From Escherichia coli (GTDB lineage Bacteria > Pseudomonadota > Gammaproteobacteria > Enterobacterales > Enterobacteriaceae), in assembly GCF_003018115.1 (NCBI RefSeq), contig NZ_CP027457.1: a DNA stretch of 64,000 nucleotides. One strand, given 5' to 3'. Below, one piece after another: positions 48,640-51,600 of this stretch; the first letter of the stretch is position 1; each line of letters opens with the position of its first letter. Position numbers: made by a program.

Positions 48640-51600
48640 TAATGGCGTTAACCATGCGAGCGTGCCTGTTGCGCTACGCTTATCAGGCCTACGAGACTCC
48701 TGCAATATATTGAATTTGCATGTTTTTGTAGGCCGGATAAGGCGTTCACGCCGCATCCGGCAAGAAGCTATAAGAAAAGGGCGGAGATCATCTCCGCCCT
48801 TTTTATTTCTGCAATCCGCAATTATCATCCCGCAGTTCTATACTTTTTGGGTCAACACGTAACGCTTTACAGGTGATTATCATGGGGCTTTTTGATGAAG
48901 TTGTCGGCGCCTTTCTGAAAGGCGATGCGGGGAAATATCAGGCGATTTTAAGTTGGGTTGAGGAGCAGGGTGGCATTCAGGTGCTGCTGGAAAAACTGCA
49001 AAGTGGCGGCTTAGGGGCCATTCTCTCAACCTGGCTGAGTAATCAACAGGGCAATCAACCAGTTAGCGGCGAGCAACTGGAATCAGCACTCGGCACAAAC
49101 GCGGTGTCCGATCTCGGGCAAAAACTTGGCGTGGATACCAGTACAGCTTCCAGTTTACTGGCAGAACAATTGCCGAAGATTATTGATGCGCTCTCACCGC
49201 AAGGTGAAGTGTCACCACAAGCCAATAACGATCTGCTTTCCGCAGGCATGGATCTGCTAAAAGGGAAACTCTTCCGCTAAGCAAAAGGGGAGCACGCAAC
49301 GCGCGTTGCATCCCCCTTTTCCCCAGGGTGTTGTACTGATTTTTGAGCGGAATCGCGTTAGCATGGGTCAGGAACCAATCTACCTGGGGAACTCATGGCT
49401 ATCAAACTCATTGCTATCGATATGGATGGCACCCTTCTGCTGCCCGATCACACCATTTCACCCGCCGTTAAAAATGCGATTGCCGCAGCTCGCGCCCGTG
49501 GCGTAAATGTCGTGCTGACGACGGGCCGCCCTTATGCAGGTGTGCACAACTACCTGAAAGAGCTGCATATGGAACAGCCGGGCGACTACTGCATTACTTA
49601 CAACGGTGCGCTGGTGCAGAAGGCCGCTGATGGTAGCACCGTGGCGCAAACCGCTCTCAGCTATGACGACTACCGTTTCCTGGAAAAACTCTCTCGCGAA
49701 GTCGGTTCTCATTTCCACGCCCTGGACCGCACCACGCTGTACACCGCCAACCGTGATATCAGCTACTACACGGTGCATGAATCCTTCGTTGCCACCATTC
49801 CGCTGGTGTTCTGCGAAGCGGAGAAAATGGACCCCAATACCCAGTTCCTGAAAGTGATGATGATTGATGAACCCGCCATCCTCGACCAGGCTATCGCGCG
49901 TATTCCGCAGGAAGTGAAAGAGAAATATACCGTGCTGAAAAGTGCGCCGTACTTCCTCGAAATCCTCGATAAACGCGTTAACAAAGGTACGGGGGTGAAA
50001 TCACTGGCCGACGTGTTAGGTATTAAACCGGAAGAAATCATGGCGATTGGCGATCAGGAAAACGACATTGCAATGATTGAATACGCAGGCGTCGGTGTGG
50101 CAATGGATAATGCTATTCCTTCGGTGAAAGAAGTGGCGAACTTTGTCACCAAATCCAACCTTGAAGATGGCGTGGCGTTTGCCATTGAAAAGTATGTGCT
50201 GAATTAATCTGTGGGCGGGCAAACAGCATAAACGCGTTTGCCCGCTTACTGATTATTGGTTTACTGCATATACAACCAGAAATTGCAGCGGTGCAGTAAT
50301 GATGTCCAGCGTAACAGTCACTGGCAGTAATGCTGCGGAAACACCATCCGGAATGCCTCTGGGTGAATAGTATTCATAAAATCGCACTTTAAATGGATGG
50401 TAGAACGCCATCACCTTTGAGTAATCCATGTTTTTATTTTTCTCATGGATTGTGCCTTTTAGGTTTTCCAGTGACCTAGTACAGTGTTGAACACCACAGG
50501 CAAAACCATAATGCGTTGCCAGTGCCTTTTCTTCTTCGTTATTCCAGTAGTAGTAAAGCGATATTGTGCCGGTAAATTTCTTTTTCCCCGCATTTAAAAC
50601 AAATCTTGCGTCGTCAGCGACCTGAATATTATGCCTGTTAAGAGCTGGATCCTTGAGCATCTTAACGATGTCATCGGCACCATCAGTGATAAGGTAATCC
50701 AGCGATTCCCCTACAAAAACATAGCCTTTTGTTCCATTACTATCTTTTGCCTGCGATAGCCCAGTGATGGTGTCTGACTGCGATTGATACTTTCCTGAAC
50801 TACCCTTTGCGGTATGGGAAACCAGAGCATACGAGATACAGCCTGAAAGCATCAGCGCCAGTGGGAATAAACTGGCAGCCTTAAAAAATCCCTTAAAATT
50901 CAACTTCATGATTAATCCTTTAAACGAGTAGCTAAGCCGTTGAAAGCATACTCTTCTTTCCCTCCTGTTTAGCGCCTGATCTCCCTTTTCAGATTTCTGC
51001 CCGATATAAGACCTTTTCTTATGAGGTGTTTTTTTGTGGACTAATATCTGTTGCAAGGTTATGGGTTCGCCCCGGCACTGGTTTATATCTCCGCCGTCGC
51101 GTTGATTGGCGCGCTCTCTTACATCCTGCTGGTGGGCGATGTGAAGCGCGTTGGCTAATCCTTCAACTGTGGAATATGTGCCACACCACTGCGCATAATC
51201 CACTTTCTTAAAGCCGGTGCGGTCAGGCATCGGCTTTTTACTATCTTGCCGAAGAGTTTTAAACGCAGTTTGCGGGTGGCGCGCCAGTAAGCGGTATTGA
51301 GCTTCTCTGGCTGCTTCAGTAACACCGAACGCAGAATGTCTGCGCTATCCAGCGCATAGCTAATCCCCTCCAGCGAGCTGGCGCTGATAAATCCCGCCGC
51401 TTCACCAATCAGAAAGGCGTTGTCCTTACCGCAGACAAAATCCTGCCAGCGTGAGGGAAACAGCACTGTGCATTTTTCGCTTTTCACCGCTTTGCCAAAC
51501 TGGAACTGAAAGGCGCTCATTTTCTCTTTCAGCGTCGCGAAACGCGTCTGACCGTCTTTCATTGGATAGGCACCGCCAAAGATAAAATAACCGTCTTTGC

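Follow-up and report, generated by a model that had tools for sequence, protein, structure and literature searches.

D-galactonate is a gut sugar acid, and five genes for its use lie together in the dgo operon of Escherichia coli K-12: dgoR (repressor), dgoK (kinase), dgoA (aldolase), dgoD (dehydratase) and dgoT (transporter). The repressor DgoR belongs to the GntR/FadR family, and its binding sites IR1 and IR2 lie over the dgo promoter. A study of how commensal E. coli evolves in the mouse gut reportedly discusses the dgo locus. In K-12 MG1655, the gene order is cbrA (b3690), dgoT, dgoD, dgoA, dgoK, dgoR and yidX (b3696), so that yidX and cbrA are separated by dgoRKADT. D-galactonate is imported by DgoT and converted to pyruvate and glyceraldehyde-3-phosphate by DgoD, DgoK and DgoA, and DgoR represses the operon via IR1 and IR2 (PMC11705089, PMC7674646). 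The sequence of the IR1 operator is CTAAATTGTAGTACAACAATAT (PMC11705089).

Natural variation in this trait has been described. Several natural isolates lack the structural dgo genes or contain dgo pseudogenes (PMC12288454), and the mean growth yield on D-galactonic acid lactone is 0.40 in phylogroup E compared with 0.82–1.01 in the other groups (PMC3147056). Moreover, bovine STEC that colonise persistently differ from sporadic colonisers in their use of this lactone (PMC7354573). Published dgo-defective isolates are said to keep an intact dgoR.

The DNA analysed here (the window) is a 64,000-nucleotide segment of the E. coli chromosome around dnaA-gyrB. Five complete chromosomes (F9792, F8111-1SC3, F6326-C1, 2014EL-1345-2 and LR882990) are 100% identical to the window over a 4.6-kb piece, and two of them, F6326-C1 and 2014EL-1345-2, are labelled O169:H41. 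These two strains are ST182, and all ST182 strains were typed as phylogroup E (PMC8454413). The host strain is accordingly placed in phylogroup E through the published typing of its 100% identical O169:H41 relatives (PMC8454413). An identical RefSeq record, NZ_CP024273.1, names the genes on both sides of the locus yidX and cbrA. The features of the locus are as follows.

50253–50909, reverse strand: yidX, 218 aa, intact, with the ORF open from ATG to TAA (RefSeq annotation of the identical record)
50910–51044, no strand: retained part of the yidX-dgoR intergenic region, 135 bp (aligned with K-12, KD602, Nissle and E1V33)
51044–51045, no strand: deletion junction (breakpoint mapping against K-12)
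51045–51158, forward strand: dgoT 3' remnant, 37 codons and the stop codon (tblastn and PGAP pseudogene feature)
51047–51074, forward strand: divergent core, 28 nt (variable-site tables)
51155–52219, reverse strand: cbrA, 354 aa, intact, with the ORF open (RefSeq annotation of the identical record)

The first-pass annotation had estimated about 245 bp between the yidX start and the cbrA stop, placed dgoRKADT between the two genes in K-12, and proposed that the dgo operon is missing here. The distance is exactly 245 bp (50910–51154), measured from the yidX start codon (ATG, reverse strand, 50907–50909) to the cbrA stop codon (TAG, reverse strand, 51155–51157), and the gene order given for K-12 is that of MG1655. 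In pairwise blastn, the window and K-12 align as two collinear blocks of about 97% identity, and about 4.75 kb of K-12 sequence between the blocks has no counterpart in the window, which bears out the proposed absence. Both flanking genes are well conserved, yidX at ~95–97% identity to b3696 and cbrA at ~97% to b3690.

The missing interval (~4,750 bp; NC_000913.3 ~3,870,552–3,875,301) contains the DgoR operators and promoter, dgoR, dgoK, dgoA, dgoD and codons 1–393 of dgoT. It includes 141 bp upstream of the dgoR ATG, in which both operators and the promoter are located. Compared with the intact K-12 operon, the site and the flanking genes are the same, and what has been kept is the last 37 dgoT codons together with the distal 135 bp of the upstream spacer; all five genes and the operator/promoter region are gone, and no operon function can remain. 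The retained 135 bp follow the K-12 spacer up to ...TTTTTGTGGACTAA, which is the 5' edge of the DgoR operator IR1. On the other side of the junction, the dgoT remnant matches DgoT aa 394–430 with 97% identity (tblastn, E=4e-15); an in-frame TAA precedes the remnant, and its 4-bp overlap with the cbrA stop is the same as in K-12. The only PGAP feature between yidX and cbrA is a 114-nt pseudogene at 51045–51158 (forward strand), annotated as “hypothetical protein, incomplete, missing N-terminus”. The spacer thus holds a remnant of dgoT, which goes beyond the first-pass annotation and proves a deletion.

All 245 bp of the spacer are covered by homology to the two K-12 flanks, leaving no foreign DNA. 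No IS element or IS remnant was found in the 245-bp scar, and no shared repeat of at least 6 nt exists at the K-12 breakpoints within 60 nt on either side, so the scar has the marks of neither an IS-mediated nor a repeat-mediated deletion. Because the spacer derives fully from its two flanks without an IS or such a repeat, the event looks like illegitimate recombination. In this process, the DgoR operators and promoter, dgoR, dgoK, dgoA, dgoD and dgoT except its last 37 codons would have been taken out together. From the above, the yidX-cbrA spacer is very probably what was left behind by one old, illegitimate deletion of about 4.75 kb that removed the whole D-galactonate regulon and is now a widespread allele.

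Other natural losses of dgo share the target and the predicted phenotype with this scar, but differ in mechanism and extent. Unlike the published dgo-defective isolates, the O169:H41 scar has lost dgoR, and in some genomes IS1 lies inside the dgo locus, unlike in this IS-free scar. E. coli O141:H4 strain P13-6 (NZ_CP080223.1; 3871–6034 of its locus) represents an independent and larger, IS91-linked loss of the same locus. In P13-6, an IS91-family transposase is located 203 bp past the left breakpoint of the window, and the missing part begins with dgoR, takes in cbrA, yidR, yidQ, ibpAB and yidE, and ends within the 5' part of yidK.

Two further interpretations of the scar were considered and rejected. 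A GCG-to-TTG change in the remnant could provide the start codon of a 35-aa peptide, but it has no clear ribosome-binding site and other dgo-negative alleles contain nonsynonymous changes. The raised divergence to the left of the junction might be taken as foreign DNA, but these last ~30 nt of the retained spacer (51016–51044) lie within a stretch that is also hypervariable among dgo-positive E. coli, so divergence on this side is uninformative. Regarding functional elements, there is no Rfam match of note and no terminator-like site in the scar, and the one promoter-like site equals the number expected by chance.

Several other observations were made in and around the flanking genes. In E. 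coli, yidX falls into two deeply divergent allele classes: yidX of Nissle 1917 (5342–5999 of its locus), annotated as frameshifted, is only ~78% identical to the type found in the window and K-12, unlike its flanking genes (96–97% identical). In the identical RefSeq record, yidE (window 55299–56984) is annotated as a “frameshifted” pseudogene, yet it is one uninterrupted 561-aa ORF in the window; a compensated frameshift could account for this mismatch, or it could be a quirk of the annotation. A block of ~3.9 kb at 57031–60957 contains a PTS sugar transporter gene (annotated “subunit IIB”) and a 6-phospho-alpha-glucosidase gene; in Escherichia sp. E1V33 and E. whittamii, whose loci are collinear apart from this, ~47 bp stand in place of the block. 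Moreover, the region between pstS-phoU and mnmE contains several genes with a type III secretion effector annotation (“type III effector protein”, espY4 and a ShET2/EspL2-family toxin) and a pentapeptide-repeat protein gene (19543–21927, 22400–23587, 23889–26297 and 35840–38011).

The scar is not specific to this strain. Of 5,426 complete E. coli genomes, 5,022 contain the deleted segment and 404 have no megablast match to it. The same junction was found in 413 (~7.6%), counted with a 244-bp junction-spanning query that had to be covered at least 80% in one place with at least 95% identity. The scar-bearing genomes include O157:H7, O145:H28 and O157:H16 as well as baboon, poultry and human isolates. 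In the scars of O157:H7, O145:H28 and other phylogroup E genomes, the junction, the 245-bp spacer, the dgoT tail and the PGAP pseudogene are the same as in the window, with 98.4% identity over the scar. For example, the scars of O157:H7 Z869, O145:H28 RM13514 and NCTC9112 agree with that of the window in length and junction, without any indel, and differ from it by 4–5 point differences. At one of the sites, 51059, O169:H41 has T (the dgo-positive state, as in K-12) and four other dgo-negative alleles have C. The window thus carries the phylogroup E-type deletion allele, with the spacer joined to dgoT codon 394 and a 114-nt tail that overlaps cbrA by 4 bp. The deletion did not originate in the O169:H41 strain, which carries a widespread allele.

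The allele is an old, shared and ordinary lineage-wide gene loss, which is already contained in hundreds of public genomes and annotated by RefSeq as a pseudogene fragment. In the literature searched, we found no explicit statement that O157:H7 or phylogroup E lacks dgo and no description of the deletion. Only two points are mildly new: the scar also occurs in a non-coli Escherichia lineage, and a divergent core is linked to its junction.

The non-coli lineage is Escherichia sp. E1V33, a separate species-level representative with the same scar, in which 60 of 60 nt upstream of the junction and 35 of 36 nt of the core match the window. E1V33 came from a scan with a degenerate dgoT pattern, run over one genome for each species, which returned 12 representatives; the pattern matches K-12 by eye, yet the E. 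coli representative and other named Escherichia were not returned, and the scan is not exhaustive. Over 9.4 kb, E1V33 is 92.6% identical to the window, compared with 97% for the non-coding scar (7 differences in 249 nt). This identity is far above the neutral expectation for such divergent lineages and suggests exchange by homologous recombination after the split. The scar allele may thus have moved between Escherichia lineages.

Immediately beside the junction, the remnant contains a short divergent core. At 8 core sites, mostly synonymous, the window differs from K-12, KD602, Nissle and E. whittamii alike, and a ninth site (51059) is added in most other dgo-negative alleles. The following ~80 nt of the remnant are almost identical to dgo-positive alleles, and the clustering is significant (Fisher p=8e-5). 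Six of the 8 differences fall at third codon positions (p=0.02), or 7 of 9 in most alleles (about 0.008, calculated by hand), and the DgoT peptide is kept across the core except for one Ala-to-Leu change. The substitutions have no single mutational direction. In O157:H7, the two outermost core sites (51071 and 51074) are in the dgo-positive state.

The core pattern looks like divergence gathered under selection for a working DgoT rather than post-deletion decay or repair damage. We favour a reading in which the deletion occurred on a divergent dgoT haplotype and later recombination with ordinary alleles replaced all but ~30 nt, which could not be replaced without restoring the operon. The core would survive because any recombination tract crossing it would bring the operon back, and the dgo-positive state of the outermost sites in O157:H7 is what is expected if recombination erodes the core from outside. 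Put more broadly, the dgo-less allele might be an old presence/absence polymorphism that E. coli phylogroup E and the E1V33 lineage have exchanged by homologous recombination, with the ~28-nt core as the last piece of an unsampled, unusually divergent dgoT lineage; we put this forward tentatively, as a possibility.

A donor carrying the core was searched for in several collections. Among complete E. coli genomes, the core is not found in any full-length dgoT, as a 73-nt query gave 70 matches that all span the junction. Two pattern scans of metagenome contigs, which required the upstream Gly codon and thus excluded the scar itself, found none either, and none of the 12 species representatives is closer to the core than K-12 (25–28 of 36 nt) except the scar-bearing E1V33. 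The failure to find a donor in these collections, together with the position of the cluster directly against the junction, is what would be expected if the substitutions came from error-prone repair synthesis at the deletion or from free decay of a dead gene fragment. However, random damage would not be biased to third positions (6 of 8; 7 of 9 in most alleles) in a way that keeps the DgoT peptide, nor does the lack of a single mutational direction fit it, and decay would hit the whole 114-nt remnant, of which the distal 80 nt are nearly identical to dgo-positive alleles. We consider repair damage or decay unlikely. In E. whittamii, dgoT is ~5% different from K-12 overall and has 9 synonymous differences within 33 nt (11 codons) just upstream of codon 394, becoming E. 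coli-like afterwards; given this cluster, short divergent patches may be a local feature of this part of dgoT.

Relocation of the operon was considered next to simple loss, in which case the dgo genes would lie elsewhere on the chromosome or on a plasmid and the strain would still use D-galactonate. Plasmids make this conceivable, since some plasmids of E. coli carry dgo operons, of the E. coli type or divergent. One of them, the conjugative IncFIB/IncI plasmid NZ_AP022088.1, contains a complete E. coli-type dgoRKADT (6148–10870 of its locus), 97.3% identical to K-12, among chromosomal-type genes, and divergent dgoRKAD sets with 75–76% identity occur on E. coli plasmids of 75–120 kb. D-galactonate catabolism is thus occasionally plasmid-borne. 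Moreover, 413 genomes contain the scar compared with 404 without any dgo match, and a few scar-bearing genomes may carry dgo elsewhere. The first-pass annotation had named two observations that would overturn its claim, adjacency of yidX and cbrA in K-12 as well and dgo genes elsewhere in the genome. In K-12 the two genes are not neighbours, and no dgo genes were found in the places searched. By tblastn with the five K-12 Dgo proteins, the 64-kb window contains no Dgo homolog but the 37-codon dgoT tail, so that a functional dgo locus (dgoT, dgoD, dgoK, dgoA and dgoR with operators) is absent from it. The five chromosomes identical to the window were searched by megablast and word-11 blastn with a chimeric query (the junction piece plus 1.5 kb of K-12 dgoA/dgoD on the opposite strand), for which dgo-positive genomes give three matching places; in all five, the junction piece is the single matching place and no dgoA/dgoD match exists. 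Among the dgo-carrying plasmids, none is from an O169:H41 strain in the 15 of 16 Escherichia PLSDB records listed. With plasmids covered through these database records, relocation is judged very unlikely.

An ancestral absence, in which yidX and cbrA were originally adjacent and dgoRKADT was inserted into the lineages having it, could draw on the dgo-less state being shared by ~7.6% of the complete E. coli genomes and by one Escherichia lineage outside E. coli. It is already refuted by the dgoT remnant, whose last 37 codons stand at their native position overlapping the cbrA stop, and the first 135 bp of the yidX-dgoR spacer are likewise kept, ending at operator IR1. In E. whittamii, dgoT adjoins cbrA, and its locus is collinear with the window on the downstream side of the junction; this indicates that the position of the operon beside cbrA predates E. 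coli. We regard ancestral absence as virtually untenable. A recent strain-specific deletion or an assembly artefact in the O169:H41 lineage, for which nothing speaks beyond the absence itself, can be dismissed with nearly complete confidence. O157:H7, O145:H28, NCTC9112, isolates from baboon and poultry, and Escherichia sp. E1V33 all have this junction with the same scar length, and five independent assemblies of the O169:H41 type show 100% identity over it. The presence of the junction in 413 independent complete genomes excludes an assembly error. Chance is not at issue, because the gene order is observed directly.

With the transporter and three pathway enzymes absent from the chromosome, no growth on D-galactonate is predicted: the strain should neither take up D-galactonate nor turn it into pyruvate and glyceraldehyde-3-phosphate, unless it has a non-homologous route for D-galactonate. 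The predicted phenotype fits the lower yield of phylogroup E (PMC3147056) and the natural isolates without structural dgo genes (PMC12288454).

The main value of the finding lies in the correct annotation of the strain, as this ETEC lineage, like O157:H7, should be D-galactonate negative. The common junction also provides a clean single-event marker for tracing the allele across Escherichia. A lineage-wide inability to use D-galactonate could plausibly set phylogroup E pathogens apart from commensals in their nutrient niche, and could serve as a simple diagnostic marker. If the allele is indeed an old polymorphism that was exchanged between lineages, part of the genus would have retained the loss of D-galactonate catabolism, or favoured it repeatedly, over a very long period.
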